64,000 bases of DNA from Phoronis australis (taxonomy: Eukaryota; Animalia; Phoronida). The position numbers and the translations under genes were made by a program. The DNA is taken from positions 1,090,855 to 1,154,854 of the forward strand of contig NMRA01000011.1 in NCBI GenBank assembly GCA_002633005.1, in the 5' to 3' direction. Positions 24,501 through 53,734 of the stretch are shown here, piece by piece. The notes beneath the pieces are model-generated. The model saw only the letters and a list, made by a program, of their open reading frames with translations. It searched no databases and was not told the origin of the DNA. Positions within the stretch are counted from its first letter, which is position 1, and the number at the start of each line of letters is the position of its first letter.

Positions 24501-24988
24501 AAGAGCCGGGGATGTTTTGCCCAGTCCATTCATCAATATGTGCTGTTGACATAAACAGTGATATCAGGCATTGGACAGAATTAGTGTCGCAATGCTATCC
24601 AAGAATGAAGTCGGACTAACGTGATCACTTATATGATTAATGGCTGTTCAGAAAACGGTTAATGTTATGAACTGAATCCTAGTTGCCTGGACCCGATAAT
24701 TCAATTGTGAAGCACTCGAAGTGCGTTCAGACGCTGACGCTGAAACTTGGTCGGGTTGGGCTTGCCACGGCTGCTCCCCACAGGGGAAGGTATTGTGTAT
24801 GTTAGGCCTACCTCCAACAGTCGTGACTGGCTTTCCATATCCACGCAGTATTCCACAGGTTTTGGCCTCGACATCATATAAGTTACGGCAAGTGCTGATG
24901 CGGCGGCTGTCGCTGCTATGCCAATCGCCGTTGTAGACGAGCAGTTAAGATGACGTACATCTTCCATATAACGTCTGAAAGCTTCCAT
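3392..24988 (-). CDS. ACSL1: Long-chain-fatty-acid--CoA ligase, ACSL1/5/6-like; 20 coding exons, 2082 nt, 693 aa
   Basis: Phase-consistent GT-AG exons: 24988-24812, 21800-21713, 20638-20571, 20086-19967, 19349-19250, 17668-17490, 16943-16911, 16633-16582, 15609-15527 (or 13149-13067), 14726-14652 (or 12268-12194), 11175-11041, 10308-10226, 10033-9883, 9165-9093, 8217-8012, 7639-7586, 5787-5698, 5088-4987 (or 4702-4601), 4362-4291, 3532-3392. Motifs: AMP-binding [13 protein letters not shown], gate [63 protein letters not shown]. The symbol denotes the ACSL1/5/6 clade; one-to-one orthology is not established. Confidence 0.95.
4059..4147. repeat. Two-copy ~46-bp tandem repeat
   Basis: gagcaactaaaataccgcttcaccgactctgttttcaaaaa occurs twice. 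Confidence 0.85.
4291..4362 (-). CDS. ACSL1: ACSL exon 19 (ALKQMILDD...LKSFEQ)
   Basis: GLKSFEQ motif; splice sites present. Confidence 0.92.
4601..4702 (-). CDS. ACSL1: ACSL exon 18 copy B
   Basis: Same peptide as copy A; next to the n at 4728. Confidence 0.75.
4987..5088 (-). CDS. ACSL1: ACSL exon 18 copy A ([12 protein letters not shown]...CKSE)
   Basis: Splice sites present; duplicated at 4601-4702. Confidence 0.85.
5698..5787 (-). CDS. ACSL1: ACSL exon 17 ([13 protein letters not shown]...GNSLR)
   Basis: GEYxAPEKIE motif. Confidence 0.93.
5900..6778 (+). mobile_element. Candidate solo LTR in an ACSL intron
   Basis: Starts TGT; flanked by 5-bp direct repeat TAAGA (5895-5899, 6779-6783); AGAAC/GTTCT near the ends; TATA-like CCTATAAAT about 6456; AATAAA at 6735. 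The 3' end lacks the canonical CA. Confidence 0.4.
7586..7639 (-). CDS. ACSL1: ACSL exon 16 ([18 protein letters not shown])
   Basis: FACS signature motif. Confidence 0.95.
8012..8217 (-). CDS. ACSL1: ACSL exon 15 (HVGPP...[14 protein letters not shown])
   Basis: FACS signature motif. Confidence 0.95.
9093..9165 (-). CDS. ACSL1: ACSL exon 14 (ILEGYGQTE...)
   Basis: GYGQTE adenine-binding motif. Confidence 0.93.
9883..10033 (-). CDS. ACSL1: ACSL exon 13 ([10 protein letters not shown]...[14 protein letters not shown]...GCP)
   Basis: LGGRVR/GSAP motifs. Confidence 0.92.
10226..10308 (-). CDS. ACSL1: ACSL exon 12 (VMAGVSES...SEVD)
   Basis: Splice sites, phase 0 to 2. Confidence 0.87.
10558..10699. 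mobile_element. Short MITE
   Basis: Inverted termini cgttcagtagacgctaggacc / ggtcctagcgttactgaacg; related fragment near 19055-19130. Confidence 0.6.
11041..11175 (-). CDS. ACSL1: ACSL exon 11 (AFLFMNG...[13 protein letters not shown])
   Basis: VPRLLNR motif; splice sites present. Confidence 0.93.
12194..12268 (-). CDS. ACSL1: ACSL exon 10 (gate) copy B
   Basis: Identical to 14652-14726. Confidence 0.7.
13067..13149 (-). CDS. ACSL1: ACSL exon 9 copy B (...IDTK)
   Basis: Within the duplicated segment; one I/V difference from copy A. Confidence 0.7.
14652..14726 (-). CDS. ACSL1: ACSL exon 10 (gate) copy A ([25 protein letters not shown])
   Basis: Gate motif; identical copy at 12194-12268. 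Confidence 0.85.
15527..15609 (-). CDS. ACSL1: ACSL exon 9 copy A ([12 protein letters not shown]...VDTK)
   Basis: Second half of the P-loop; duplicated at 13067-13149. Confidence 0.85.
16465..16487. repeat. (AT)n microsatellite
   Basis: Direct reading. Confidence 0.9.
16582..16633 (-). CDS. ACSL1: ACSL exon 8 ([17 protein letters not shown])
   Basis: First half of the AMP-binding P-loop. Confidence 0.93.
16911..16943 (-). CDS. ACSL1: ACSL exon 7 (33-nt, [11 protein letters not shown])
   Basis: tttgcag acceptor, gtaagt donor; bridges exons 6 and 8 in frame. Confidence 0.8.
16975..17044. repeat. Two-copy 35-bp tandem repeat
   Basis: accaaagcaaaatatgtcttaataggcccctaaac occurs twice. Confidence 0.85.
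17490..17668 (-). CDS. ACSL1: ACSL exon 6 (EMKILVCD...SFTDSL)
   Basis: [11 protein letters not shown]; splice sites, phase 1 to 0. Confidence 0.9.
19250..19349 (-). CDS. ACSL1: ACSL exon 5 (WVVTEQA...VPLYDTLG...)
   Basis: VPLYDTLG motif; splice sites present. Confidence 0.92.
19967..20086 (-). CDS. ACSL1: ACSL exon 4 ([10 protein letters not shown]...GIFSQNREE)
   Basis: GIFSQNR motif; splice sites present. Confidence 0.9.
20571..20638 (-). CDS. ACSL1: ACSL exon 3 (NGPCLG...WTSYQE)
   Basis: Conserved NGPCLG motif; splice sites present; absent from the ORF track. Confidence 0.9.
20947..21105. mobile_element. GGCGGATCC-type MITE
   Basis: caggggtggatcc...cctggatccgcctat termini; similar G/C-rich termini at about 24171-24453, 30653-30810, 30930-30970, 41395-41600 and 48107-48256. 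Confidence 0.6.
21348..21396. repeat. Near-perfect 49-bp palindrome
   Basis: gcactattttgaggcttta...taaagcctcaaaatagtgc. Confidence 0.85.
21713..21800 (-). CDS. ACSL1: ACSL exon 2 (DGSRVS...GFKRGIIQS)
   Basis: ttttcag acceptor, gtaag donor, phase 0 to 1. Confidence 0.85.
22592..24019. mobile_element. ~1.43-kb non-autonomous TIR DNA transposon (CAC-type termini)
   Basis: About 165-bp imperfect TIRs C(T/A)CGGGTGAGAAACAACATGACCGCCGG with internal subrepeats; ATATA on both flanks (22587-22591, 24020-24024). Confidence 0.8.
24812..24988 (-). CDS. ACSL1: ACSL exon 1 (MEAFRRY...RLLE), N-terminal membrane anchor
   Basis: ATG at 24988; hydrophobic [19 protein letters not shown]; donor GAG|gtaggc. 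Confidence 0.85.
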
Positions 24989-25058
24989 TGTCAAAGTGCG
25001 CAGTTTCTACATCAAACTGAAACGACACCCAGCATTTGTGCAAGTCAAAGCAAACGAC

Positions 25059-26330: not shown

Positions 26331-28924
26331 CGCCTCAGTGTACCAAATTCTCTTGAGCATGTCATTGAAATCGACCTTTACTCAAAAGTGTGCAGCGCAT
26401 CACAGAATCCCTTGTGACCAAAGATAACGTCGTCTATCTCACCATGGACTATTTACACTCATTTGAACATTAGGTTATCATCAAGCGGCCTTTTCCTTTG
26501 ACAAGATTGGTCTCATTATTATATTCCTTACCGGGATAGGATTCTACTTCCGATACCAACATCGTGTGGAAGTCGATACAGTTAGACCGTAGCCGCGTCC
26601 AATTTGTACTGTAGGCTCTCAGAAATGAAATATTTTGGGTAAGCCAAGTTTGACGGCAGTTAATTTTGAGTTAGACATTTCTAGTAGATTCAATGAATCT
26701 GACTTTCTAGCATTTGTGAACATATTGGGAATGAGAAAAGTCCACTAGTTCGGTTAGAGATACGTTTTTCATTGAAAATGAGACCTCTATAGCTGTGTTG
26801 TGTAGCGACTGAAATATCTGTTGCGATTTCAATTAGTCCTTGAACAACCCAGAATTGCAAAAACTCTAGTTTCATGGCAGCACTTTTGAACTGTATTTTT
26901 GAAATCAGCTGGAAATTTGCTTGCAGAATCTAGTGGTAACATGGAAGTGACGGTTTGAAGCTGAAACTCTCAATGTTGTGTTTCTATCCTTTTTCATAGC
27001 TTCGCTTCCTTTTTTGGTGGAAGTGAAAGGTCAAAAATACGTGACAGAATAAAGTTTCTATGGTCATGTGTAACGATTTTGGTGTGAAGCGAATCACAAC
27101 TTTTCATTTTGTTCGCAGATTTTCAACACAGTAGCAGAAAAGCAGCAAGTCCAGTGACGTGTGTACAGTGCCCGGTCAAAGCTAGCGACAACTGCGTAGC
27201 GTCTCCTCAAGTCTCAGGCGATGCGTACAAGCGCTTTTTTCGAATTCGTAATTTTGGTGTTGGCGTTTTCTTGATAGTTTCTATATGTTATGGTAACGGA
27301 AACGGAGCCTTATCACGGTAAGGAATATTACGAGACTGATTAAATGACAGTAAAACACCTAATTAGAATTTCGTTTTTTAGCCAACTTATCAGGGCCAAG
27401 TGGAATTTTAACGTAAGGTCGCTTGTGGTCGAATGGTAAATTCAGGTTATGATTTAACTTATAATCAAATGCGCAAATACTTCATTTAATATTCATTCAT
27501 ACAAACACTTGCCGCTCTGTGAGTGTTTCTACAGCATTCTGTTTGAAACATAAATAAATTGGGTTTCGAGGAGTGATAGATATTCACTTCGATGTTTCAT
27601 TTTTATTACAGAGCGTTTACAAATTGTTGAGAGGACGCTCGCGATGGTATCAAACCTTAGCAAGATCCGTCCAAGTAAAAACCTTCAATTTAGGAACACG
27701 TTTGGAACAACGGAATGATAAATCTTTATTTTCAAAAAGTAGCGCACGGTCGATCCTCGACTTCAAGTTTCTCAAATTCTGAACATCGTTCTTAAATGTA
27801 AACTGAAGTTATAACATTTCAAAAATCGGTAAATTAAAGTGTTAATTCTCCGCTGTTTAGCATTCAACGAGGGAATCTTAACCGAAACGCCCTCGGGTCT
27901 AAAGTTCAAAATCAGTAACTCGCTCATCATTGCCGAATGTGCCGACAACTCAGGTCACAGGCAAAGGGCACATGCGTCACTCTCGCATTCGCAATTTTTT
28001 GGGTGGTCAACCCCAATAATCTCTGAAAAGCTGATGGTTTCGATGTTCTTATTGGTATTGGAAACCACGTTCTATTACGTGGCTGACTTTATGTTGTAAG
28101 CTAAAAACCGAGGAAATACAGTTTCTAGAGTGTTTTTCTTATTTTGAGCAGCATACATTGTACGATTTTGAAACAACTTCCAATCTTGATATTTTTGTCT
28201 GCCCAATATTTCTTTTAATCTTTTTCAATTAAATTTTATCAAAACATAGTCATATCAAATTTGCCTCATTGCATCAAGGCTCTGCACAACAAGCCCAGAA
28301 GATACTCCACACGAACCACTGCTAGGATTTTTCGTTGACGTCTGCAGCGTCTATCAGCCTGTGAACGTACGTGAATGAGAACATCACGTGACTCTTGACA
28401 AAATGTCAATAATCTCGTGGCATTTCCTTCCAAATTTACAATCACTGCCGACAGTGATCCGCAATTTAAACGATTCATGGTACTAGTCACAAACAATGCA
28501 TATCTCATTCTTCGGCGTTAGTCAACTCACCTACAAAATGTCAACCCTCATAAAGTCCAGACAAGCGATTTACATGTCGGCTTAAATGTTGCTTGACGTG
28601 CAGTCCCCGTTGTTAGTAACTTTCGTAGAAAATGACACGAAGCAGCAGCCTCGTACATTTACTACGTAAGCCAAAGTTTCCGTGCAAAGAATTACGTTAT
28701 GGTCAAAAATGTAGTCTCGTTGTGAATAATGAGAATAAAACAATTTATGTGACATTCATAAATTTCATGAATGGCAAAATGGCGCCGGAAACAAAAACAG
28801 TGAAGCACTAGATCAAATCTTATTTCAGTTCTACAAAATACAATACTTCTAAACCAACAAATGATCTAATACATATAAATAATATAAAGACTTGGATGCT
28901 ATCATTGTCAATCGGTAAAAAGAT

Positions 28925-30609
28925 CTACTGCACGAAATTTGTGCTTTGTATTTCACCATCTAAGAGAACCAACACGAGGTCTGCAATACAACCGGAAGCG
29001 GAAGATGGAAACTCATAGTCACCTCCAAGACGTTCTCTGAAAACATGTAAATATGGCCGCAGCCTTCCGTGCCAACTGGCAGCTGGGTCTTCCCTACAAA
29101 CATTATGCAGCATTTCCCGGCAGCTCCACAGCCAATCCAGAGCATGATTTTTCTCAAGTCCGTATGCTCCATTTTGGCGAACGTGCGCGTCAGTCGACGA
29201 CTTCATACCCGATAGACGACTAATGACGTTGTTTAGTCGACTGCTTTGATGTCGTTTTCCCGGCGCCACGGCAGAAACAGCACTTTCATTCTGAAACGGC
29301 AAAACGGGTAACGTCTTTTGTTTGCCGTGCTGAGACATCGCGTGACCAGACAGTGCCACGTTAGTTTGAGAGGGCACCTGCGCAGAACTCGTGTTGGAAG
29401 ACTCGGCATCGCTGTTACCAGTTTTGGTTTCATTAAGATCCATGTTTTCCTTGACAACATTGCGGTGGCGGTATTTCCCGGAGTGCTCGCGCCACAAACG
29501 TCCTGCCTCGCTACGCACGTGACACATATTGGAGAAACCTCCTTGTTCAGGTTCTAGCCTAAGGCGCGCGCGAAACTGCTCAGCCCACTCATCATTTCCT
29601 TCCATAGCAAACTGCAAATTGGAGTCGTACTTCATAGCATTACGGTGGCAATATTCTTTGTATCTTTCCTTGGTTACTAAAACCTTTGGTCTCACAAGTG
29701 GGTCTAATTCATTGATCTGTTCTTGCGTCCAGTCAAGAAAGTAGTTGTTCTTGTGTCGTGTAACGATTATACTAACCTTTTCCCACAAAGTTAGCGGTTG
29801 ATCCGATATACTCGGAAACAAAAACGACATGCCACGTTCAGATTTCTTCCATTCCGTGTTCGAGCCGTACTTTCCGCGCCAACTTTTTGGTGCCCACTTC
29901 CAGTCGCGACCGCGGTTAGAGCGACTCCCGCTTGGCGAATCTCCGACGCCAACAGACGTTTGGCTCTCGTCGGACTCCGAAGGTTGTCGAAAAGCATCGA
30001 AGCTGTTTTGATCCGGGGACGAGGTCATGTGTCGTTGAAGATGAAGAGGTGAATGTGTAAGGTAATACCCAGCGGCCTCCAGGGACGGATTAAATGGGAA
30101 CACGGGGGCGGTATACGTTGCGAAATGGTGCGGTGGGAAAATGTGCCTGTCTCCATCGTCGCCGTGTGGCCCAAGGATGTTCGTCACGAAGTTATTCAGC
30201 TGCTTTATACTGTCTGAATGGACGGCGTTATCATTCCGATTGGTCGTCTCACCAGGACGTTCATCCCGAGCGCTCGTAGCCACCGCGTTAAAAGCGGATG
30301 GCTCAGAATCACCTTCGTTCTTGATTGCCGGAAGCATTTCAGTGCGTTGAACAGCAGTAGGTTGTCTCAAGTCCATAGCACCGAATTGGCATGAGTCAAC
30401 ACTTTCTTGTTTGACAGTAGTGCCGCCTTTTGGAGACGACGACCAATCAGTATCGTTTGATTCCAGTTTGATACTTTTCGCAGCGATTTCGTCAGGACTA
30501 GATGATTGTGACGAGCGTGAAGACTTGTTAGAACTTGACAGACAACTACGGTAGTCGGCGCTGTGCTGTCTCCAAAGGTCTGTCGCAACCACTTTGGCCT
30601 GGTTAAGTC
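28925..30609 (-). CDS. Tandem-domain gene terminal exon (1685 nt)
   Basis: Acceptor cttatttcag at 30610; long open frame to TAG; contains linker, repeat 2 and C-terminal domain. Confidence 0.9.
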
Positions 30610-33600
30610 CTGAAATAAGCCAAGTGTGATTCCTGCTTAGTACACTACAAACATAGGCGGATTTAGGGGGGAGGGGGGTCCAAGAGGCCTGGCCGCCCCT
30701 TGGCTGCCGCAAAAGAATAAAACAGAAAGCGCGAGGACATACTAATTGACGTCGGTAATTAACATGCATCTCGGGGGCCCAGAACCTCATCGCAAGTGTC
30801 CGACTGAGACCGCCGGCGCGATCCTTCACAGTTTTTTTTAGTCCCCCGACTGTATATTACTAGAAGGTCCACATCCACGGAAATTAGAAGTGCACGCACG
30901 CAATCGTGCTTTGTGGGTTTGGCCCAGAAAAATTGTTGCCCCCCTTATGATATCCTAGATCCGCCACTGACAAATACCTTAGCGCAACGCAGCTGTTCAG
31001 ATAATGGGATATTGGAAAAAATGTATGGGGTGAGCAGGGTTGAGTTTCGCAGATGCAAGAATTTCACGAAGGAAGCCAGGGTGATTGTGTGCTTCACTTG
31101 CCGGTATCTCGCCAAGTCTTGCATGATCTTGCATTTTCGCGAGATTCTCGCGTCAATGGAACGCAATTCAGGATTTTACGTCATAAATCTTACTCGCAGA
31201 GGCTGGAATGACTGAGTTTCAGCTTGCGATGTGCAATTGTTAGGCGAAAACTATTTTCATGTGTTAAAGAGTTTATCAAAATTAATTGTCGGTGTATCTC
31301 CACAGAATCACACCACACCAAAGGCATATCTTGTCATTTTCTGTGATCTCAATGGTGTCTAGCCAAAATTACAGCAGAAACAGGTTGAATGGGGAGAAAA
31401 CAGCATCTTGCAGTGATTTTAAAGTTCGTATTCACGTGAAAAATCAAAATTACGTCATGAAAAGCTTGGCTCATTTCGTGTATCCCCGCACTTTGAGAAT
31501 AACTTTTCTTCACTAAGTGACGGCCACTGGTTCTGAAAATCGGGGATTACTCTAAGCGACTGTTGTCCTAACGTCTTGTTTATGACACTATGTCAAAATG
31601 TCAAAACATTTCTGTTGCCGTAGTCAATGAACAACCATCCGCCGCGTCATCAGTCGACAACTTTAGCAGAATGGGTGATGTAGGGTTCAGTGCCCGGTTG
31701 CATGAAACAGTGATGTCCCAAATAGAGACTCAACTAAGGTCCCTAAGTCCTTTTGCGTATTTGTGTCTTTATGGACTGCCAGATGCAATATTTTTCTATC
31801 ATTTCATCTTTATTGAATTTGATTAATGACATTTTCTAATAATATAACTAAAAACTGAGCCCAGAGTTCATTGAAAATGAATAGGGACTCAATCCTTAAA
31901 TTGGGGGTGTTGCATGAAAAGATCCCTAATTATTTTCGATAATATTGACAACTCAACGTAGAATTCACTCTCGATTTGTATCAAAGTCAAGAGTTGACTT
32001 AGTAATGAAAGTAAAACAATACAAGAAAGGGCAATCGAAGCTTTCACAAGTTCAAAGATACGCAGTAGATTTAGGGAACTCAGCTGAGTCCCTGTTTGGG
32101 TCTGTTTCATGCAACCGGACACTGAACAACATCCGGGTCACAATACCTGCGAATCCACCATATTCTGGTGCCGTGCTCAGTCTGCTTCTAAATTCCTCCG
32201 CCCAAGGTTCGTCCGTCTCCAGACAGAACTGTAGATACTTCATGCGATTGAATTCATTCCTGAAGTAAAACAACCAAAAATGTTGTGAATCAGAATCCAA
32301 ACCTCGCAAGCGCTAGCGAAATACGACATTCACCAGTTCGACAATGAACGACAATACAAAGTGGACATTATTACTCTCTTTATATTACGTACGCGTTCCG
32401 TGTTAGCATCATTAAACGACGGGAATAAAAGAGATAATGACGACCACGATGACAGCCTGGTCGTGTCAGCACGCGGGCTGTTGTGGTCTTTATTATCATA
32501 ATGCCAATAATAACGAACAGCGCGGAAGATGATGATGATGATGGTGGTGGTGATGATGAGAAGAGAAGCACTGGCGCAGATAATGATGATTAAAGTAATG
32601 GAGGTGGACGGAGATGATGACACTGTTAATAACTACTAATTTTAGAAGTAATCGCTATGAGATCGATATCTATATACGTCAAATTAACCTTTTCATCCAC
32701 TTCAATTCCATTCTATGTCCATAAAGTGCGATGTATAATCACCTACTTAGTCATCAATCACACCTGAATAGGACGGCTGAGAGTAAAAATTACAAGGTCA
32801 CGATTAAAATTTCAAACGAACACTATTGTGTGACATGATCAAGAAGTTTTAAAAATAAGGATTATGCGAACAAATCGTCACTATATTCATGACGATTACC
32901 ATTGGAGTGCGACCCTGTCGGGAGACAAGTGCGACACGTACGGCGATACATGGCGTGACTAAGTCGAACGTTTCAACGTAAGGCTGATACTTTAAAAATC
33001 AATAAAACAGAAATTTATAACAACATTTCATCGAATGTTAAGACCAAACGTAACACTTTATTCAGAAACATGGACATTTTTGAACTGGAGTGTGCCCTCA
33101 GAGTCAGGGGTCAGTACACGACAATGAATTGTTGAAGAACTCGTGAGTGACGTTGCGAATGACCCCGAACACATTGTTCTCGTCTCGTGACACAACAGAG
33201 CGGTGAAAACCAAATGACTTGTATCTACATATGTACTTCTCGAAGATAACAGGACCGTATGAACGTACTCACTGTTTAGCCACGAGCGATTATGTCAACG
33301 TGTAACCAACACCGAGAGTCAACATCAATTTACTATAAACATTTATGATAAAGGTGTAAAGACCAGCGCAAACCGAGAGCAACGAGCTCAGCTGGCTGCC
33401 TCAAGCGAACTAGCTGAGTTCACAGATCACGTCAAGGCGCCATGTGAAGGTCGCCTATAACAACAAGAATACCGGTATCAAGGTTATGTAGGACCTTGTA
33501 TACACATCGGTATAACTCTGTAAAAGTATACATTTTTTGAAAGTAGAAAGCCTGTAGAATCAGGTTTTTGACTATATACCAATCTGCTGTTAATTCTATC

Positions 33601-36600
33601 CCGGGACCATGTGTTTATAGTAAATTTTAGCCAAAAAGAACGGTGCAGCCGTAGCAAAACAATGGTATCAATTATATGACCATATTGTGTTTGATACAAT
33701 GTATAATTGTATGAGACGGAATCTCAAAAACGATGCTACAGTTTTCTAAAATATCACTTAGTTTTCGTTTGATGCTTCTTTTGACTTTTTCATAAAAATC
33801 ATAAAATTACTATTTTTGATACCATCTCATGCAAAAGTGGAAAATATTAAAAACAAAATCAGTGCATCACGTATAGTGTGTGTATGTTTCATAAGAATTC
33901 GATCATCCATTTCTGAGGTATGATGTTCCAAAGTTTGCCAAGTTTGGACATTTTTCGAGGGTCCTACATAACCTTCAGGTCTGCTAGGTAAACTTAAGAG
34001 GTGAAAAGTTTTGGTCCGTCTGATGCCTGGGGCATTGCCAGTTTGGCCAAAGTGCGAAACGTCCAAGCATTTACCTGAGTGTCCCACAAACGTTAGCACA
34101 ATATTCGGAAGTATAAAAACCAGAAAATGGTTCTGTGCAGAGAACTAACGATTTTTTGTATTCCAGGAATCGCAAAGTTTCTTTTGCAAGGCAAAGAAAT
34201 TAGGAAAATTGACAGTCTTGGCTCTTAAACCTAAATGCAGTGAAACGACGACAGATTTTCAGACTGTGCACATCTGATTTCACATTTTTCAAAGAACAAG
34301 CACTTGTGTAAGGATATGTAACTGGGGCCATCCAAACCCAGGTATAGCCAAACATCAGTTATAATATGATATCTGGGTAAATAAAGTTATCTTGATCCCA
34401 AGTCAACGAACAACGCGGCTATTGTCGTTTGAAGCGTGACTACGCTTTTGGGACACACTGTACAACTTCCAGTGGTGCACCAACAAAATGGCCGCTACAT
34501 TTGTACTCATGACACAGAAATTCGCTTTTATGAACTGTGATAGTAAAAACGGAACATACGAGTTGTAATTGTCCGAAATTTTTCCGAGATGGCCATGGTT
34601 GTGAACTGGGAAAAACAAAGGGATAAGTAATTTGACGCTTTCTCAAGTTACATTGTGAAATTCGGCAATTTGTCAACATTTTCCCTTGTCAGAAACCGAG
34701 CCATCAATGGTAGCTTAAATATTGTTTAAATAACAATAGAATTTGTGACGTTGTTCACGTTAGAATGTCACAGTATTTACTTATAGGTCCATACTGCCAG
34801 GTATGTACGCTCAGACATTTCGTCTTGTTGTGCCTTTTGATTTTTAAATCCGTGCTGGTGGCGTTTTTTACTTTGAAGGTTGCGCGACGAGTGGGCACTA
34901 GTCATTAAACGATTTGCTAGATCATGTAGATATATAGCCAACAGTGGCTAGTGTTTCGGAGTCAATAATCGAGGCAGGGACACGGGTCATAGCTATGAAA
35001 ACAATGGCAAAGATAACAGAAAAATCGAATAGGAATTTGGAACGAATATACCCTTGTCTTTATCTGCAGCCCTCTTAAGTACTGCGTGCTTGACCTACTT
35101 TCCCAGTAAGCCAGGGTCCATTAGTTCTTGAAGCCCAATTCAGCGCCACCTGGCCATTTTTGGGATGGAACACTTTGCTTTATATTCAATACGGCCTAAA
35201 GCCATGGGCCGAGTGGAGTTCCAAGATTACTCCAAGGGAAAAAGACTCACCGCGGCTAACTTAATTTATTCCAATCTGAAGTTCGTGAATTCTACTTAGC
35301 AATGTGTAGGTCTTTAGATACCGTTGTTTAACTTAAAACAACGCAACCAATTCAATAGCAGATGCGCTTAAGCACCAGTGGTCATGGCGGGAGCTGTTAA
35401 AAGAATAAAACGAAACAAAAACAGAGAAGATAAGCCCAGTGTAGTAAAACACAACGTATTCTGGATATGGGTATATACCAGAGCTATTGTACATTCATTC
35501 ATAAGTGAGCTGTTTTGCCACCAGTTCAATTTGATTTTAGACTGAATTCTTATCTATTAGATTTAGTCTGAACAGGTGGGTGTCAAGGTCTACACAGCAG
35601 TTTGATTTTCCCAACACATTATGAATATTTGATAACTAAAACCGGAAAACTAAAAAACCTTCACACGAACGACATAGTCTACCACTCACCTGTTCATATG
35701 AAGCTTATACAGGTCTTGGTCTATCAGATCTAACGGCCTAACCAGAGGGTCTATGTCTTCCAGCTGTTCCGCTGTCCAGCCAACGAAGTATTTGTGTTTG
35801 TGCCTCTCCACCCAGACGCGACATTTGTCCATAATAGATCGGCCGTCGAGACTTGGAAACAGTAGCCGTATGCCAATAAGCCTCTTGGCATGTTTCACCT
35901 TACCTGTCAATAATAACACACAGATACCCACAATATCAAGCATTGTTTCCGTCATATTGTTTGCAAGTCACAATTTTCCTGTGATGTCACCGGATGTTTA
36001 CCAGCCGACAATTGTCCCACAATATATTTGAAAATCGACACCAGCGTCGCTAATTCAGTAAGTTTTCCGCAAATAAAATCCCCGTATTGTATGAGGATGA
36101 GCTGGGCTGCGCTTAGAAATGGAAGACACCGAAACGAAAGAAAATTCTATTCAGGAAAAACAAACCGTATTTTTTCCATAATTCAACATCACATCCCCGC
36201 CAACCAATCACTTCAGAGGCGGCAATTTTGCTAGTAAACGTGATCCACCACTTACGAAACACTCGTCTTGTGTGATCCCGCCAAACTGGTGAGAACCTCG
36301 CGTTCATTACGGAACGCATACCTGGAGTGCGTTCCATAGACGCAAGAAATCGCGAAAATGCAAGATCATGCAAGACCACGTATGGAAGAGGAGTGCTTCA
36401 GAAGATTACTAATGTATTCTAGCAAAACGGCGATCACAGAAGTGATTGGTCGGTGAGGTTGGAATGTTGAATTAACAGAAAACTTCTCGCCACAAATGGT
36501 TTGCGAGTGTCTTGGGACTATGGAACGCACCACTTTGCAGGTGTCACATGTTTCGCATCATTTTGATACGGCGGGAGAAATTAGACTTCCAAAGGTTGTG

Positions 36601-38695
36601 CAGACTCTTCCAGTCCAAAGGAACAAAACGGAAACCACTTATGCGCAATGTCAGTGTAACGCGTGTCGCCTTCGTCTTAAAAACAGTATTTCCGTTTCTC
36701 TTCAATTAAAAATCATGAAACGAATTTGACCGCAAACCAGCCAAAATGATAGTATCTCAACACAAAACGAAAAGGTTTCAAAATAACCACAATTAAATAT
36801 GTCCTTTTCAAATTGTTTTAGAATTCAGGTGGTGCACCAACAAAATGGCGACCACAGTTGAATGGCATCACTTTTTATGAATTGTCGGAAAGCACAACTA
36901 AAAGCAGGACATGACCGTAATTTACGAAACGTTCTTATTTCAGTGGTGTCTATCGGTTGATGAAACTCTTTCAGTGTTTTGAATTAGAGAAAATAACGCA
37001 AACGATCTCTTTGAGGCGTTTTATCCCCATAGTTCGGCTTGTCAAAGTCTTCTATTCTTCAAGGAATGTCGACGTCTTAATATTTGACAGCAGAGTTCTT
37101 TGGCTAACAACCATTAAAAATCACGGAAACACGATTGTAGCAAATAGAACAAAGAAACAAAACATGTAGTTAACTACATGTAGAAGATATTAACTTTAAA
37201 CGAGATACGAGAATGGTCTTCCTGAGGTGTGCATGCGTGAATGAATGGTGTACTTATTTGTTTGTTTGTTTTTATAATTGTTTGTAAATGATAATAAATA
37301 CATAAAAAACATGTTTCATGCGAAAAAATCATGTTTTCGAAAATTATGGCGATCTCTGTGAAAAATCAAGATTTTTATTAAAAACGAAATCTCGTAATTA
37401 CGAAAAATCTGAAAATTGTTTCTGCGCTCATAATATGATTATGCAATCAACATGGATTTTAAATATGCACAATCAAATTAGTCTACAGTTAAAACTGTGC
37501 CACCCTTGTGTTCTCTCGGTCAGTCCGCGGATTTTGATAAAAATACACAAATGGTGAAAATCCTTGAAGTGTCATTCTTCAAACTCACGCCGGGTACTTT
37601 AGCCTTGGTTCGCAATTCCACTTTACAAATCTGCAGCTAAAGGGAGAACTGTAAGTCACGTTGCGCTAGTTTTAAGGATTGAAGTATAAAAATTGAAACG
37701 AAATTCAATTCGCTGGACAAAACTAAATCGTCACAACCGTATTCAGCTGACGAAACATTCTCGCAGTGACTTGAAACTCATGTAAACTGTCACAGTGCGT
37801 GACCACAAACTGTTTGTGTAGCGGCCGTTCAAGTTTTTTACAATAACAAAATCTCATTTTGGTAGAGTTAGTTCCCACCTGTTAGTCGAGTTGTGATTAG
37901 CAACTAGAATGCCACTGATAGCTTTATCACGCGATAAAAGTAACGTTGTAGATTAAAAGTACTATAAATCATCCTTCTGTTCAAAAAACTAATTTATGAT
38001 TCATCCACTTACCGCTATATCAAAAGTGATTCCTGAGCTTGTCAAAAGAGAGAAGGCTTATACGTTCACTGCTTACTTAGCACAGTGGCATGACTAAGCT
38101 GGTCAGTGATGTGGCGCGTCTGGTCTCAGGCAGTAACGTAGGGCCAGGGTGCTTCAAGCCAGGGACTCGCCAATAATCTGAGTAATTTGAGACTAGGGGC
38201 CCGTTTCAAGAAACTGACTTAAGTTCATTTTTGACATAAGTCTAAGATTTGTCTCAAATTCCAAACTTAAATCAAACTTATAAGATCTCTTTCTGGAAAC
38301 GGACTTGAGACAAATTTAAGTTTATCGAAAAATTGGCTGAAATTTAAGATTTGTCTTAACAAAGTCAGTTTTCTTGGAACAGGTCCCAGTTTTACAACGG
38401 TAAGTGGTTTAATCAAAACTTGTTTTTTTTTTCGACAGAAGACGCGTTTGCACATTTACGTTTAACAAAATTCGCTTCAATTACACACGGAAAAAATTCC
38501 GCGGAATTTCACTTTTCGCATTATAATATCACAATCGGTTCTCAAAGGTCGAACAAGTCACAGGAAATGGCTTTACACGCGCCATTTATACATTTTCTCT
38601 AAAACTCATGATTTTCAAGAAAGCAAATTAAAATAAAGCAAACAATTCTTACCAGGCCGCGCATTTGCACCTTCCACTTGGACGTCGGCATCCAT
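28925..38695 (-). CDS. Uncharacterised 684-aa protein with two copies of an unassigned ~125-aa domain; exons 38695-38653, 35903-35690, 32259-32147, 30609-28925
   Basis: Phase-consistent GT-AG exons (phases 1, 2, 1) give a 2055-nt ORF. The spliced N-terminal part aligns with an internal segment of the last exon (HKHKYFVGWTAEQLEDIDPLVRP / HKNNYFLDWTQEQINELDPLVRP; WAEEFRSRL / WAEQFRARL; LWRQHSADYR / LWREHSGKYR), which independently supports the splice model. Confidence 0.82.
32147..32259 (-). CDS. Tandem-domain gene exon 3 (NEFNRMKYLQF...GGFA)
   Basis: Acceptor tttacttcag, donor CAG|gtattg; second half of repeat 1. Confidence 0.88.
32527..32620. repeat. (GAT/GGT)n low-complexity tract
   Basis: gatgatgatgatgatggtggtggtgatgatga, intronic. 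Confidence 0.75.
35690..35903 (-). CDS. Tandem-domain gene exon 2 (KVKHAKR...LHMN)
   Basis: Acceptor ttgacag, donor CAG|gtgagt; first half of repeat 1. Confidence 0.88.
38196..38388. mobile_element. MITE with PIF/Harbinger-like termini
   Basis: ggggcccgtttcaagaaactgactt / aagtcagttttcttggaacaggtccc inverted ends; AT-rich interior. Confidence 0.6.
38653..38695 (-). CDS. Tandem-domain gene, first coding exon (MDADVQVEGANARP)
   Basis: gcaATGG context; in-frame upstream TGA; donor CTG|gtaaga in phase 1; acceptor ttatttttag at 38718. Confidence 0.6.
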
Positions 38696-41600
38696 TGCGT
38701 CTCAGGTTACCAGGTAACTAAAAATAAGCCAAGCACTTTGAAAGGTTCAATTTTATACGAAACGACAAGGAAACACACAACATCTTCGATGAATTTTGCT
38801 CCGAGGCAATCCTTAAACAACATTATGAAACAGATATTACAAAGGCTTTGTAATTACGAAGCTATTTTTATATTGCACAAAGATGTAATAATTATGGCAC
38901 CAGGTCTCAGCCAGGGTTGAATTGTATGTCACTGATAGAGAACGCGTGACGAAGACTTCATCAAAAAATAATACTGCGTATCCCCGTGTTTTACAAGACC
39001 ACGAGAAAGTCATGACAATATCTTTGGGAAAACGGTCAAAATACCTCGATTCCCACGCAATTTAGGCTCTGCCTCGTCTTAGCGACTAAAAAGGTTTTAG
39101 CGTTTACTGACACGTCTGTATAATACACAAGCACGACACAAAATGACTAAAAGCATGAAATCGACACCGAAAACTAAGGAAAATAAGGCGAGACCTCCTA
39201 CACAGAGTGTCCGTAACAATCTTCCTAGCTAGCACTTGTCATAATAAAGTACAGTAACCACCCTTGTCATCGGCAGCCGACAACCAAAGGGCATTCGGTG
39301 CAACTGCTGTTAGAGCGCGCTTTTTGCACTTGCCATAATCAGTTTCAGTGTTGTCTGCTGACAGCGGTTAGAAAAAGCCTGACCAAAAGCGGTCGCGAAC
39401 AGGAAACAATTCATTAAAAACTTGCGAGGTGGTGGTACAATGACTGCACTGGTCAGCTTGTTGTCATTTGTACGAGATGGTCCAAATGCGATACGTACAC
39501 GAGTGTTACGGCGAAACTCGGCTGGAGTGAGTCAACGAGGGCGTTTTATATCATGTAACCTGTTTTTAGTCATAATTTACCATGTATCATCAAAGCCAAT
39601 TTCGGAGACCTAGCGAAAACCAGAAACAGAATATGATATGTGAAGGAACAGACATTTGTTTCCTTTCCAGTTTTTCAAGGAACCACGTGGTACATGAAAC
39701 GTAGAGAGCCAAATATAAAAGTCGAGTTTTTACAACGGCAGAAGTTTCTGTAGTTTTTGACCCCCAAGCATTGCAATTCTCGCAAAGCAAAACACTGTAT
39801 ACACGTACTTAAAGATACCACGCAGTGAATTTAATCACGTTACACGACGGCGCAGCATCGTGCATCTGTCATTTTCGTTTCACGTGTCCTCAATGACCAA
39901 TACAGGTCCTAACTTTTTAAATTGCATATATATATTCAGGATTTTTCCAGAGACTGTTAGCAGGGATTTTAATGAAAATAACAATATCCCACAAACTAAC
40001 CAGCGTTCCATAAGATTACAGAATTTTTTGGCGTATAGAGTATAAATACAAAGACATGAAAGACAAATAATACAAGGCATTCTAAATCTCATCACACGGA
40101 CGCACGCACGCACGCGCGCACAAACACACACACCCACCCCTCAACATACCCACCCACTTTAGCTAGGATGTTGTCAGGAAAAGTTAGGGTTAACCGGCAT
40201 TAGTTTAAGTCACAAGGTTAACTAAAAGTATTCTTTCCATCAAAATTGCAAGAAAAATAGATGCACAGTTAACAAAGCACCACCTGTCGTGTGTAAAAGA
40301 AAAAAAAATCGGAACCTGAAGCCGACGTATTAATTATACTCAATATGCTTGCAAAGGTTTATCGCATTCACATTTTATTTGAAAGCAGCACCTTTTTGTG
40401 GTTGAAAGGTACATATTTGAGCAGGTAGAGGCCTCGAGCCAAAGCTCAGGGTCACTGTTTATTTTTTGTATCTAAACATACTATATACAAGGAACACTTT
40501 CTTACTTAATGACAGCATCCTCCAATGCTGTTCCGCGAGTAGATTAATTGTAAGCGTGTGAACGCGACCTCGGCCAAAAACGAAGTAGAAACTCAGAACT
40601 TGCATGCAGCGATCCTCAAATGAACCGTGAACCTACCGCAAGCTGGGATTAACCCGCATGGTTTTAGGCACATTGCCTTCGCATTTTATGCATTATATCT
40701 ATCAGACAATCAAGAAACATGTTGACTTAAAACGTTACGTGGGGTCTTATCGGCTAGTCTATGTCTTTAGCCAAATAGCTACAAAACTATAGATTTTAAC
40801 TCAGAAAATGTACATAATTGTCTGAAAGTACAAACCCTGAAGGATTTGAATTGTGGGATTTGTTTCCGGTCCACGAGTGAAAAAAATAAGTGCAAGTACA
40901 AGCGGATGTCTTTTGGTCCACGAAAAGCAAAACGATATGCTTGGAGACGAACATCTTTTGTCTCATGGTGTGGGAACACTTGCGTGGCCGTGAAGTATTC
41001 ATTACTGTCCACAAAAAAGTTAGTGACAACCGACGTTAAAACGCTATACCAGGGTGATACAAGAGTCCTCGATATCATCTGGGTGCCTAGTTACGAGACT
41101 ATAAATGACGTAAACAATAGTTACTAATGCGGAATAGATATTAGTACTACAATCACCATCTTAAAATAAATACAGGTTCATTCCCGCAGAACATAATTTG
41201 CTTCCAGCATTTACAAAACGTAAGCGAAAGCGCTCAAAGGAAACTGTCATAAATCCAGTTTTCTCATAAGACAGCTGCCAGCATTTCATAGCTAAACAGT
41301 AACAAAGAATACATAAAACAACGAGCGCCTGGGGCGAGACACATATCTTCGACACACTTTTTAAGATTTGCAACCAGCTAGTTTATAGCTATACAGTGGC
41401 AGATCTACGTTTTCAGTAAGGGGGGGGGGGCGTTAGGATTCGAGCGAATCATAGGCGCGTAGCGCCGAGCGGAAGGAAGGTCGGGAGGAGGTTCCCCCCT
41501 CTCGTGTAAGATTTTTTTTGTGGTTTTTAGAAGCTGATTTCGTTTTTTCTGGCGAATTTTTTTTTTCAATTTTTATTTTTGATCCTGTCCCGAGGGGGGN

Positions 41601-42038
41601 ATTTCACATCATAAAGAGTTCCATAGCAACTCGAGTATGAGTGTCAGATTTGAGTACGTTTGGAGTCTACTCGAAATACGACATTAGATACACTTTTTTG
41701 AGTACGACTCCAGTGAGCACGATTTTGAGTATGAAATCTCGAGTATGAGTATGAGTCTGAGTACGGAGATTGGAGACCGGGCCCAGATGTCGTGTCTCCA
41801 TGACGGTCAACAATGTACAAATCAATTTGACTTAAACTCTGAGCAACCGCGTCACAGCTGTAGGAGCACGTGTGAATATGTACTAGTTACTCTCTCGCAT
41901 TACACGTGTTGAACAACTGGGAAACCGACCGTAGGATGTTTTTGAGGCGCGGCCATGTTGGTTACGCCTCCGCACTTTCGTGTATTTTTCGATGCAGTCG
42001 CCGCAAAACTACACCCTATCGCAGCGCCATCTGTGCTC

Positions 42039-42098
42039 GGGAGGGAGGGAGGGGGGAGGGAGGGAGGGAGAGGGCGGGGGGAGGGAGGGAGGGGGGGA
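42039..42098 (+). repeat. (GGGA)n polypurine tract, G-quadruplex-prone
   Basis: gggagggagggaggggggagggagggagggagagggcgggggg... Confidence 0.8.
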
Positions 42099-44114
42099 GA
42101 GCGTTTAGCAAACATCATAAATAAGGGGCCTCAAACTGGTTCTCAAAACCCAAGCTTTTTAGATAAAGTCTCCTAACTGCAGCTGAAACGAGACGGAATC
42201 ATTTTTACACCTGGCGCACCCACTTGACAGCCAACTGAAATGGGTCGAGATCCTTCATTTTCTTTCTTTTACCCAGCGCTGCCTGCTGGCATGCGTGAGG
42301 CGCTGGTTTCAAAATCAGTCGGGCGCAGACCAGAATCAGATATGGTATTTTTGGCATGCTACAGAAGTTCTCTGGCCTTCTTGGCTATAATCACGTCATC
42401 AACAATAAGTGAAGCAGTTATTCCGATTTCACAAACGAAACCGCTAAGGTGGAAATCAAAGTTAAGTGTTTTTCCTTTCCCGCGCGACAGATAGTTAAGC
42501 ATGAGCACCACTCAAAATGTAGTGTTCGCCCTCAGCTTCCAAACACTGGGGCCCAGTGAACCCATTTTCCAAAATTTTTTATGTCCACTTCCAAATTATT
42601 GGAGTCCGTGAAAACCATCCAGAAATCCGACGATTAAAGTCGGCCTGTTGGTACTATCATCAACAGAAAACATTAAAAAGAAGACCACGGTAGAAAACAG
42701 AGTTTTTTTATTTATTTGATGTTATTACTCAAAACTTAAAATTGCGTCCAAGGTCACGCATCGATCAACTAAATATGCGCCAGACGACGGGAAAAACGCT
42801 GCCTCGACCGAACATAGAAAATAGTTTATTTGATATGCGAAAAAGTGTCGAATGCGGCATAGAATATTCGTTGCATCCAAAATGAGTCTGCGCCGACAAT
42901 GAAAAGTGGAAATTTTTTTTACCTACCGGGAGCGACCCGCTCCTTTCCTGAGGAATGGTTTCAGCGGGACAGACGGAGCTTCCCGCTGTACTCTCGCGAA
43001 ATACTATCTATTGTGCCTTCGGAGAGGTGTACAGAGCGAACTATACAACAGACTCCAAAATCTTTTCAAAATGGGTCTCCGATGATCAGTCATGGAAAAC
43101 CTGTGCCGAATGAGCTGTTCACATGTGTTTGCCGCAAGCTGGCTCTGTTCCGTGATCTTCCTACCGAGCGGTGCTTACACTCTGTATGATGTCGCTGTTT
43201 ATTTCACTGCATATTTCGCTACCGTCATGTTCAATTTACCAAGTGCCTGAGGATGAGACATGCGCTCTCGAAATACAACTATTTTAACTTATTTGTAATG
43301 CCCATTAACAATTTACTTTACAACTGCACGTCTGAAAGTTGTAAATAGTACAAAGTGTTTTGAGTGTCCAATAGAAAGTTCAATCGTATTTTAAATCACG
43401 TTTGTGTTAATGAATGGCTGCTACTGAGTGTTACGTGGGAGTAATGTGACCCTAGAACTCACGCATTGGCACTTTCAGTAGCCTCGTTTTCAGGTTCTTG
43501 TCTTTCATGCAAAAAAAAACAAAAAGCTGGTGTAATCTTTCAACTCTGGAAAAGTGGCACTGTGCAAGGAAGATGCTGGGACACGGCGGAGATCCCGTCA
43601 GTGGGCATCAGTGCGCAGGTCACATTGGACGTTTGTTATACACAAACAGTTAGGGAATAAGCTAGACAAACATAGTACACCGTTCTGTTATTTTGGCTGT
43701 TTATTAACTGAAGCGGAATGCATCAATGTAGTCCGCGTAGTTGTTGCAGCAGCCGCAAGTCACAAACACATGCTCTCAACTTCCAACAAATTCCGGGTAT
43801 TTCATCTAAGGCGGTGATTTAGTTTTTCAAATGCATTATGGGGCGGCTGTCGGCTCGTAAGCATCCGGTGACATCACAGAAACTTGGTGACTTGAAAGCA
43901 TAACGAAGGAAACAGCACTTGTCACATGAGCTCACCATAATCAAAAGCACGGGTCCACTGTAACATGCTCTTTGGTGCGAGTATCGCCAAACAACAATTA
44001 ATATGTAAAACCTGTGGTTGGAAAACTGAAGTGGCGACCAATGTATTGATTGAATACATAGACTTTCAGTAAATCGTTTGCGAGAAAGATTCGCTACATC
44101 CGAAAACGCTGAAG

Positions 44115-44860
44115 TTAAAGGGGAAAGCAGCCGTTTTTTATATTACCTTTGATGACAACAGCAACGCAGAGCGTTGAAATGCGCCCACGAATGCACCGCA
44201 AATGGTGTTTTTAGGGCTGTTTATTTGTATCATAAAAATGGCCACTAGATGGCGCAAAATACGTCCAATCCATCCGAAAACGGGGACATGACACCGTTTT
44301 TTAATAGAAAGCTATTTTTTGAATCTCATAACAATCCATGAAGAAACTTCAAAGAAACAGAGGAAAATGAAAATGAAATTGCCTCTAGGGGGCACAGCGT
44401 TCGTCAGATACGTCTGAAAGTCGTCGTCGTTCGTTGTAAACTTCATATGAATACATTTGCTAAATTTAATTGAACATCCTGCAGAGTGTTTAGGAGATAC
44501 AGCTATGAGTGCAAAAAACTGCCACTAGGAGGCGCCACAGTAGTCGAAGTCGTAGGAAAATCGTCAGCCCTCCTCTTTGCATTAGTAACATATATGCCAA
44601 TTTCCACAATCATCCTTAGATTGGTTTGGTAAACAGAGGGGCAGATGCCAAAAAAAAGACTCGAAAACAGTAAAAATGGTCACGGGGTGACGCAAAATAC
44701 CTTGAATTCAACCGAAAACCAGAGGATAGCGTCACCTCACTACTAGATGCCTATTTGTTAAATTTTATGAAATTCCGTTGAGAACCGTTGTAGATACAGA
44801 GGTAAACGTAAAAAACAAAAAAATGCCACTAGGGGGCACACCGATAGTGTGATCCAAAAT
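44115..44860 (+). repeat. Repeat element with ~140-bp diverged tandem units, each carrying a CTCF-like motif
   Basis: GCCACTAGATGGCGC 44241, GCCTCTAGGGGGCAC 44381, GCCACTAGGAGGCGC 44521, degenerate 44679, GCCACTAGGGGGCAC 44825; begins TTAA-AGGG. Confidence 0.65.
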
Positions 44861-45400
44861 TATGTATTGCACCACGCAAGTAAGTATACCGCCGATTAAA
44901 ACTTTTATGCCGCGATCTAGTGAATCGTGCAGGCAGTTAGAGTGCTTGGTTCAACAACAATTAATGGATTCTCAATGGAGAAAAAACACGTACGTTTCAC
45001 AGACATAACAATGAGGCCCCGATTGGGTGAAAAATTAACGTGTCACCGCATGTGTTTACACTTAATTTAATTATCCAAGAGGTTATCAAGTTCAGATAAA
45101 GCGTGTGTAACTGAAAATTACAGGCCATCTCTTGACCATGATTGAACGCGTTCGTTCGCAGGAAAAATGTTCGCGTAACTCTTAAAATCCCCATGACGAT
45201 GGCGTTTTCCAGTTGCTTCCGTGGGGGGGGGGGTGCTCCCAAAAATTCGCTAATGGTCAACTCAAATTTTACGCAAAAGTTGCAAAGTTTTACATTCACT
45301 GTCGTTAGGAAACCATCCTCTGTTCTATTCACTTGATATTCAGAAAATCTCGAAGTCCGAACTTACATAATTAATGTTCTGTTTACGAATTACGAGTGCA

Positions 45401-46031
45401 CCAAGCCTCAAGATTGCGCGGACCGGTTTAGCCATTTGAGGCTTGATGAGGAGATATCCTTTCTGCGCGCTGATTGGCCGTAGACGACGTTCACCGCTGA
45501 CAAGAGCGACACAAGAAACCCTCAAACACTTGAATCTCTGAACACTTAAATACCAGTTCTGGAAGATTCTTGTCTTTACTTTTTGATGCGATGATTTGAT
45601 TATAATAATATTTTTTCCAGAAACTGAACAAAATCTAAACGTAGATTTGAAGTATTGTCACAGGCGCTGTAGTTAGTACCATTCGTGATTCGGAAGCACA
45701 CTATACTATTTTCGTTATTGTGTGAAATAAGGTGCACGCATACTTATTGTCAAGTCTAATTTATCGAAAGCACCATAGAAATTATCCTGCTTTGGAATTC
45801 AAATGCATCATTTTTCAACGATCTAATTCTGAGCAGCTGCATAAATACCGTTCGTTTTGATTTTTTGTATTATACCACAGCAATTTCACAGGTGATATAA
45901 CTTAATGTCACTCGCGATATTCCTGCGATTTCCGTAAAAACGTCTCCGAATTCTAAAACACGCAAGTGAATTTTAATTCACGTCAACAAGCCTCAAATGG
46001 CTAAACCAATCAGCCTCATCTTGAGGCTTGG
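45401..46031. mobile_element. ~630-bp MITE, copy 1
   Basis: TIR ccaagcctcaagat...atcttgaggcttgg with internal ggtttagccatttgaggcttg / caagcctcaaatggctaaacc; diverged inverted copy at about 59585-60080. Confidence 0.75.
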
Positions 46032-46267
46032 GAATGCGGCTGGCGAGCACCTTGATCCCCTGCCACAATCATGTGCAAAATAGCCCTATTCAATAGTGCG
46101 GAATGGCGTCACAAAAAAGGCTATCGCGAAATTCTTGCGGCTCGTGGAATGGAAATACCATTTTTACTAGCAGCTCATCCCCAAAATTCAACATTCCAGC
46201 CGCACCGACCAATCACTCCTGTGACAATCATTTTGCCAGTGTAGGGTCGCGCGAAACACTCGCCTTT

Positions 46268-50900: not shown

Positions 50901-53734
50901 AATAACATACGCACAAGAACAGCATGCTAAAAATGAGCACGTCAGGTCTACGGATATTATCATGTCTTCAAGCAGGTACAGATGATGCCTTGAAAACACA
51001 AGGCAGAAGTATGTGAACGATTCTCTTACTGTTTCACTCCATTCCGGCGCAAACTTTCACGTGACGAGCTCGCAAAATTGCAGAAAATTTAAAAATGTTT
51101 CTACAACTTTTTGCGATGGTAAATTCGCTTACCAGACATGGTTTCAGGTTATAATTATTAATGACTCATTGCGGACCAGTAAAACGTTCAATTTCAGAAA
51201 CGTACTATTTTCTCATGTGATGTCCAGGTAACAAATTCAACTGTCGACCATGAAACACTAATGTGACGTTTCGAGAGTTTTACTTACGTCTGCAGATTAA
51301 AATAAGCGATTAAAGCAAAATAAGACGCGTTTACTCCTCAGCCGATACATTAGAAACAATAAACTGAAATTCGTAAAAAAACAACTTCAGATTTTTCATG
51401 TCGCGACTCGTAAAACATTTGCATTAGCTATTACCACGTAAGCAGACTTCGAGAAATAAGTAAGCCTTAGGATATGACGATCAAGCTGTTATTGGCAGAT
51501 AGCTGTGACCGGGTTACCAGCTCATACCGTAACCTGGATACTATGCCAGTGCGTGATGGGAATCAGACCCTGTAATGACGCTTGTTTCGATCAATCAACG
51601 CTGTGATTTAATCTGAAACTTGAAATAAGAAATCGTCTGGCACCACCCGAACTGCTTCTCAGACTCGACCATGGATGGATTGCGTCTGACCACAAATGTA
51701 CGCGAAACGGTTAAACGAAGGTCACCTACACCAATACAAGAGACTTACTTCTAGAGACTGTCACGACGAGTTTTGGCACTTCAATTTTCGAGACGGAACC
51801 ATTACGACGGCACTCACTGCACGCTGCTGAACATGATTGAAGAGACGTCAGGTTTACTAGGTGCGGTTCGACTTTGAATAGAACCGAAACAATAATAACA
51901 GCGTCGCTCCATGTAACCACGATGTCACGACAAACGTGATGACTCACCGCCACAATATGAAAACGTCACAATCGCAATGACGACGCAGTAAAGATAGCAT
52001 TTCTATACTTACTTCAATCCGCGCTAACAACTTGAGGCCATAGAAAGGTCGCGGTGTATGATGGCAGTGGTACACTGACACTGTGTGCCCCAACAGACTG
52101 GTCATGAACGACATTTGGCATATGTAATTCTAGCACGCGCCGGTGCAATCAGTATTAAGTTACATACTCATGATGACATGAAGAGTTTATCTGTCATCCT
52201 GGAGGGGTGTTGGGTAGCCAGTGGTGATGGACGAGTTCATTTCTCAAAAATTCTCATCACACGACTAGTTCAAAAAGTGACAAAAGAAATGCTTTTGTTA
52301 CATACGACTGTTGTCTGTTGAATGCGTAACGATATATTTTTTATTCTTGCAATTCTATATGCTGAGACAAATGACCAATTAACAAGATTTTTGACCACAT
52401 TCTTAGAACATTGACGGAAAATTGAAGTATTTGCACTCATAATCAAAAACAGGAGTGCTGGATTGAACAAGTCTCGAGAACATGTGGCCGTCTTACCCTG
52501 GAAACACCTGCCCACACGTGTAACGAGTGATGCGCTTGAGTAAAAATCGTCTCGTCAACAGAATGTGTCAAACGCCAGAGCTGACGATCTGTCACAAAAC
52601 AACAAAGAGCAATTCATTGGTTAAAACGCAAATGAGACATACATCTTGTCAAAGATATTGTCTCGTCTGCTTCTACGGCTGCATTTTAGACGCTTACGAT
52701 ACGACAGCCCTCTCTTGCTCAAAATGCAGTCGTAACAGGAACTCTCAACGACGATGGCGGTCGACAAGAACGTGCCTCGCTATTGTGCATTTACCTGAAA
52801 GCAAATATTTCCGGATTTCTCATATCCACATCCCCTACCTTGTTAAAATGTAATACGGTTTTTATATCTGTGATAACAATGCTCCCTTCTATAATTTATA
52901 AGCCTTGTAGGCGGAACGGACACGATTGTTTGCTAAGGCAGTTTTGACTGTGGCTTGTCAAGAATTGTCTCCATGGCGACATGATGACGGAAAGCTTGCT
53001 TTATCAATTGTGACGTCGACATGGAGTGTAATGAAATAAGTCCGTTAATTTGTTTTTATCGATAACTGTGTAGACCGACTATATGTTACAGCAGACATTT
53101 TCATAATCTTTGATGGTGAGTTAAACCGCGGATCACAACCTTATAAAAGGTTATTGCCTCCGTGGTAAGCTCTCGTCGGAATACAACTACTGTGGTCAGT
53201 CGGCTTACGCGTACTATTATTTACTATGAAATTCAAATATTCGATAAATTAAGCTTTTAAAACGTTTTTTTATTTAAAGGAGTGCAAACTCACCTCCCGT
53301 CACAAAATGACATTTGGTTTAGAATTGTTATTCGGAGTGTTATGAAAGTGTTCGCAGTTTATTCCTTAGTCAAATTAGAAGCGATTTCTGAACTCGGAAA
53401 GAACTAGCAGTTCGTTATTGCTTGAGGCCGCACTACAAAAGACTTGTCACGGCAGGCTATTTCAAACCTCCAGCTTGGTCTTAAGCAATAGTGGACTGTT
53501 CAGGAACCACTTCTAATATGAGTTAAGAACAAGTTGAGATGAGGCCTAAAGCAGAAAGACGACTAAATTATAAGTCATTTACTTTGACGGCTCGCGGGAA
53601 TCTAGACGCCATCAGCAAACATTTCATTGTGAAAACTGATGCCTGTATTCGGCTCCCTGAGTCGCCCTGTCTGCACACTACGATTTTTCTTGGCGATTCC
53701 GTACTGCGACTATCGTATCGGCTTAATTACGACT

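Follow-up and report, generated by a model that had tools for sequence, protein, structure and literature searches.

A spliced two-repeat gene of Phoronis australis defines an undescribed domain family with possible DNA-binding function and possible mobile-element ancestry

A 64,000-nucleotide stretch of the Phoronis australis genome (assembly GCA_002633005.1, contig NMRA01000011.1, forward-strand positions 1,090,855 to 1,154,854; referred to as the window, in whose numbering all positions are given) harbors a spliced minus-strand gene whose product contains two copies of a domain that, on sequence comparison, is an undescribed family. We propose that these predicted six-helix repeats likely bind DNA, that the protein would be a nuclear repressor, and that a small mobile-element protein was possibly the source of the domain. 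Taken as a whole, we hold the chances of this explanation to be even.

The gene is backed by RNA. Its four coding exons join into a single open frame of 684 amino acids (aa), the introns between them are all GT-AG (3/3) with compatible phases, and raw reads from the runs X3 and X4 cross the three coding joints exactly to the base (35/61, 78/56 and 53/69 reads for X3/X4). Runs X3, X4 and X5 represent three samples of one study and were assigned by species label. In the joint-spanning reads of X3 and X4 the first mate always lies on the plus strand, which in most stranded libraries means minus-strand RNA, and RNA contigs contain two of the coding joints in X1 and one in X2. An artefact or chance splicing is excluded by the reads over the coding joints, which confirm the splice model of a first-pass annotation made from the sequence alone and show that the gene is expressed. 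An in-frame TGA three codons upstream (sequence read by eye) marks the ATG at 38695 as the start. As placed by frame and reads, the start-codon exon (38653..38717, coding 38653–38695) holds 22 nucleotides of untranslated region (UTR) and aa 1–14; exon 2 (35690..35903) encodes the N-terminal half of repeat 1 and ends in ..MNR at an intron position common to homologues; and exon 3 (32147..32259) encodes the middle of repeat 1 (helices 4–5). The last exon (28898..30609, coding 28925–30609) contains the end of repeat 1, linker 1, repeat 2, linker 2, a C-terminal domain (CTD) and a short 3′ UTR. The stop codon occupies 28925–28927, and RNA molecule ends cluster at 28898–28899, about 26 nucleotides beyond it.

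Repeat 1 (R1; aa 21–144, 30548..35886, identified by alignment and tree) is distributed over three exons, and repeat 2 (R2; aa 379–504) has its 126 residues contained in a single exon. The two are identical in 51 of 122 aligned columns with a score of 273, compared with 27.9 ± 4.8 and a maximum of 50 in 2000 shuffles, so the duplication noted in the first-pass annotation stands, as do all of the core motifs it listed. Homologue alignment and the predicted structure extend R2 by a conserved tail (aa 379–516, 29432..29845). The repeat is predicted, confidently and without a solved relative, to fold as six helices, which supports the earlier view of a folded, conserved domain. A third conserved domain had been missed: homologue comparison places a helical CTD, weakly resembling SAP and helix-extension-helix (HeH) domains, at aa 616–677 (28949..29134). 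A six-frame profile search of the window for a third repeat (R3) returned R2 and two R1 exon pieces only. The 684-aa protein thus lacks R3; it also has no hydrophobic stretch of transmembrane length (highest 19-residue mean 1.33).

The first-pass impression that the repeat resembles no named Pfam family held up. No Pfam-A family (BEN, MADF, Myb/SANT, THAP, BED, HTH-Psq and CENP-B included, with transposase-type families likewise unmatched) reached its gathering cut-off over the repeat in scans of four window pieces, 35 homologues, 62 distant matches and 43 members of the family alignment A2 (25 of 58 families listed); the sole passes in the homologue scans were the C2H2 fingers of P0111 and P0115. 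Sequence searches of the PDB with R2 and the family alignments A1 and A2 gave best E values of 0.27, 2.5 and 0.52, respectively. No PHROGs or NCBIfam family matched more than 2 of the 43 family members, the best phage record had an E value of 6, and 0 of 49 pattern matches were obtained in prokaryote genomes. The ESM Atlas, queried with P0122, gave no usable feature match (template-modeling score by query ≤0.30, from a poor model). A description of the family was not found in the literature, where subscription coverage was partial and repeat databases lay outside the search; the family may already have an entry as a named element or as an unpublished domain.

The gene is not an orphan, as it had been called, since it has homologues in annelids and molluscs and a large family of single-domain relatives in amphioxus and rotifers. 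Searching with R2, 35 of 78 candidates match at 62–67% identity, together with 2 of 12 short and 4 of 61 long proteins. A further divergent downstream copy (R3) is found in 35/35 of these R2 homologues, and the conserved CTD of about 60 aa, also present in the window protein, terminates 33/35. The annelid and mollusc relatives have two or three domain copies, mostly three, plus the CTD: the order R1-R2-R3-CTD is seen in three full-length proteins (P0050, P0070 and P0093), and a mollusc set (P0099, P0100 and P0104) has two repeats, the second one divergent. Among 30 proteins looked up, seven clusters could be named by source: Dimorphilus, Lamellibrachia, Potamilus and Solemya for the multi-repeat form, Branchiostoma (two clusters) and Brachionus for the single-domain form. 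The intron positions of the window gene look shared with its homologues, because 16 of 18 R1-type fragments in the protein library end at the window's exon-2 end and 22 stored open reading frames (ORFs; near-duplicates included) start near its exon-4 start. An N-terminal V-L-x-W-Y-G-L motif is common to P0050, P0070, P0093 and P0163 and is not encoded in the window. On different tree branches, the domain has twice been fused to C2H2 zinc fingers (P0115, 669 aa; P0111, 621 aa); one fusion has an R1-type copy inside a zinc-finger protein and the other has two standalone-type copies ahead of two fingers.

Several features argue for nucleic-acid contact by the domain. The turn into helix 4 of R2 (aa 442–454) is invariant in 36/36 aligned sequences, many of them closely related, and conservation together with the spacing of basic residues in standalone relatives marks aa 444–457 (29609..29650) as a candidate recognition helix. 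In this region R1 keeps its own, different conserved sequence and R3 has lost it. Among the standalone domains, whose median identity is 28%, helix 4 carries K/R at positions i, i+3, i+5, i+7 and i+8 in 62–94% of 50 domains. Helix 3, the turn and helix 4 could work as a helix-turn-helix does: helix 4 would use its basic face to read the major groove, and the tail that follows helix 6 would make further contacts with the backbone. Through their own conserved helix-4 sequences, R1 and R2 would read different sites. A metal-dependent nuclease role appears disfavored, given that no acidic residue is conserved across the domain classes.

The linkers could supply the repressor function. In 27 non-redundant multi-repeat proteins they contain 24 SUMO-type Ψ-K-x-E sites versus 5.1 in shuffles and eight documented CtBP motifs versus 0.64, with reversed controls at background, in tests that kinship inflates and with a broad CtBP motif picked after the fact. 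Seven of the eight CtBP motifs are ALDLS or VLDLS, located 15–48 residues before the CTD in 7 of the 27 family members. In linker 1 of the window protein (30314..30472) the motif scan finds three SUMO-type sites at aa 170, 189 and 219 and, at aa 201–205, the sequence AMDLR. We suggest that repression would come about through recruitment of CtBP to the disordered linkers and through their SUMOylation, and that the CTD could be a SAP/HeH-like tether or oligomerization module. In addition to the two cautions attached to the motif counts, several observations weigh against this interpretation. AMDLR, the only CtBP-type motif of the window protein, is degenerate; the strict PxDL[ST] form is not enriched in linkers; the classical nuclear localization signal pattern is absent from the window protein, and its R1 tail is non-basic; net charge is modest; and the domain may instead serve as an adaptor or bind RNA. 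On balance, we lean slightly toward the window protein being a DNA-binding repressor. The designation of the product as a nuclear regulator in the first-pass annotation is borne out in part, its support being indirect and coming from the SUMO and CtBP motif enrichment, the C2H2 fusions and the conserved basic helix.

Much of this evidence can be read in another way. If the domain were a protein-interaction or chromatin adaptor akin to BTB, SCAN or ZAD, the protein could be a nuclear co-repressor scaffold making no DNA contact of its own: the SUMO and CtBP motifs would fit equally well, the zinc fingers of P0115 and P0111 could provide DNA binding, and a conserved protein partner would also explain an invariant exposed helix, the modest net charge and acidic R3 being in keeping with such a role. 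However, the helix-4 K/R residues and the basic tail, both kept in standalone domains at such low identity, are more usual for nucleic-acid contact, and the whole-domain structural hints are to DNA-binding domains only. We consider a scaffold the less likely alternative, deserving perhaps a quarter of the weight. RNA binding, with the protein acting post-transcriptionally or silencing mobile elements, is improbable, since the CtBP and SUMO motifs and the C2H2 fusions indicate transcription and no RNA-binding family was matched.

The origin of the domain is a separate question, on which its standalone relatives bear. Searched with a profile built from 36 sequences, a database of 1.84 billion proteins yielded 141 matches at E ≤ 0.001, 77 at 1e-10 and 30 at 1e-30. 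Tree position and nearest-neighbor search assign 79 proteins to the standalone type (37 of 200–280 aa, 39 shorter and three longer). When intact, these carry the domain close to the N-terminus; Y-x3-[KR]-A-[TV] comes next, then a KRK cluster and finally a helical tail. Between 34 standalone tails and 50 CTDs the match reaches 81.6% across 28 columns (0.6% in the reversed control; 5.5% for the rotifer-type tails alone), and on this tail-CTD match the standalone protein looks like a one-repeat version of the window protein. The ancestor may be pictured as a protein of about 230 aa with the layout domain-basic tail-CTD, whose domain would have been tandemly duplicated after capture. In a tree of 162 rows, made by a quick method with a midpoint root and leaving 71 of 154 branches open, R3 is set apart from the other copies with high support; the tree is silent on the direction of capture.

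At the protein level, the free relatives are multi-copy and decaying. Twenty-five standalone-type fragments end at scattered positions, 16 of them continuing into at least 12 unrelated residues; two groups (eight and seven members) are at least 75% identical, yet their break points mostly differ; and amphioxus-type copies have internal deletions. Scattered breaks in near-identical copies would be typical of decaying multi-copy elements. The window copy, for its part, is intact, expressed, conserved and intron-bearing, as a host gene would be, and none of the 12 inverted-repeat pairs in the window encloses it. In two near-identical Branchiostoma belcheri gene models, P0143 and P0231, the N-terminal 150–200 aa form a fragment with DxxH followed by a His/Cys cluster, upstream of a standalone ORF copy from which part has been deleted. 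From these motifs we take the fragment to be transposase-like (Kolobok/MULE-like); it matched no Pfam family. Context scans located no loci of these relatives in viral (0/65, 0/34 and 0/5) or metagenome (0/225 and 0/176) sequences.

Alternatively, and with either function, the standalone genes of about 230 aa may be an ordinary fast-evolving host family with birth-and-death pseudogenes rather than element cargo. The context scans were empty and brought no transposase or terminal repeats to light, three standalone clusters (Brachionus and two from Branchiostoma) have annotated host gene models, and the fragment in P0143/P0231 may be a nested insertion. Near-identical copies broken at differing points, the length below 200 aa of 39 of the 79 standalone-type matches and the amphioxus-type deletions are harder to reconcile with such a family, which we regard as a serious possibility at roughly a third. 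A mobile-element origin of the domain is marginally favored.

Upstream, the transcribed gene exceeds the extent given in the first-pass annotation (28925..38695), because 5′-UTR exons are spliced to 38717. A 13-kb intron separates the start-codon exon from a main 5′-UTR exon at 51749..51826 (minus strand; upper end at least 51826; joint 38717-51749 with 62/45/0 reads in X3/X4/X5 and depth 84/65 at 51826) and a minor alternative one at 52013..52061 (minus strand; upper end not fixed; joint 38717-52013 with 4/6/4 reads). Depth in X5 is about 10-fold below X3/X4 at 38400–39053 and 51480–52133, and the minor first exon is the sole one among its detected joints. This low depth, with zero X5 reads on the main UTR joint, indicates that expression of the two-repeat gene may be regulated. 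Short inverted-repeat elements lie in introns at 31685–32127, 36179–36530 and 45401–46031, the first two of which attract numerous partial reads that stem from other genomic sites, as miniature inverted-repeat transposable elements would.

The downstream neighbor on the minus strand (7618–25006) has an AMP-binding match below the cut-off (E 0.003) and is, we presume from its motifs, a long-chain acyl-CoA synthetase gene. Two motifs are present in duplicate: PKGVLISH lies at 15604 and 13144, YLPLAH at 14690 and 12232. This pattern suggests tandemly duplicated, possibly mutually exclusive exons. On the plus strand, 1204–2888 contains a pair of ORFs (198 and 296 aa) that have hydrophobic ends and an EGF-like piece below the cut-off (E 0.0013); they are perhaps a degenerate LDL-receptor-like gene.

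Animal transcription factors draw on a limited, well-catalogued set of DNA-binding domains, so that a further conserved one would be a rare find. Annelids and molluscs show strong conservation of the domain, and with 126 residues in one exon it is directly expressible. Should the standalone ORFs prove to be carried by a mobile element, that element would be an unclassified one, and the family would clearly exemplify how a domain is captured and tandemly duplicated and how co-repressor motifs are gained.

Among known systems, the best whole-domain structural hint for the predicted model points to the LEAFY DNA-binding domain (PDB 4bhk), which is likewise helical and of similar size. LEAFY combines a helix-turn-helix fold with a separate oligomerization domain, according to the sections available of its description (PMC8287900). 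No LEAFY chain appeared at E ≤ 10 in the PDB searches with R2, A1 and A2, and it is improbable that the domain represents a known helix-turn-helix fold in strongly diverged form, with LEAFY as its nearest relative. Most far-reaching would be a new animal DNA-binding fold of an unrecognized mobile element, domesticated early as a CtBP-recruiting transcription factor with two to three repeats and representing the missing non-plant relative of the LEAFY domain. We think this very unlikely; with the LEAFY link removed, the same combination becomes conceivable, if doubtful.

For the CTD, resemblances to SAP, LEM, Rho-N and the EndoVII C-terminal domain, structural matches that we take to share the helix-extension-helix fold, all fall below noise level, and the window CTD and three CTD-only proteins matched no Pfam family at E ≤ 10. 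Family members resemble CtBP-recruiting repressors such as RAI2 and EBNA3A in having PxDLS-type ALDLS or VLDLS motifs in disordered linkers, whereas the window protein has AMDLR only. CtBP is bound by ALDLS and VLDLS in EBNA3A and by ALDLS in RAI2, as stated in the accessible parts of the respective reports (PMC2883600, PMC11187106).

KolX, the accessory protein of Kolobok, comes from an animal DNA transposon, where it is encoded by a second ORF, and the DxxH fragment of P0143/P0231 similarly precedes a copy of the domain. In the part of its description at hand (PMC9587614), KolX has a zinc-binding fold, ballast, with seven conserved cysteines; the window domain family has no conserved cysteine set, which rules out identity with KolX. 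Motifs of the P0143/P0231 fragment were not found in the four supplement files of that paper, although line breaks or gaps in the alignments there could have concealed them. The transposon-derived transcription factors, as far as covered by the available portion of PMC10027918, offer an analogy. As in these, a small, probably DNA-binding domain would occur both in decaying multi-copy ORFs and in a conserved, intron-bearing host gene, and would have been repeated and shuffled into zinc-finger proteins. Unlike in these, the window domain has no Pfam match to their families, and its presumed donor is an ORF of about 230 aa rather than a transposase.
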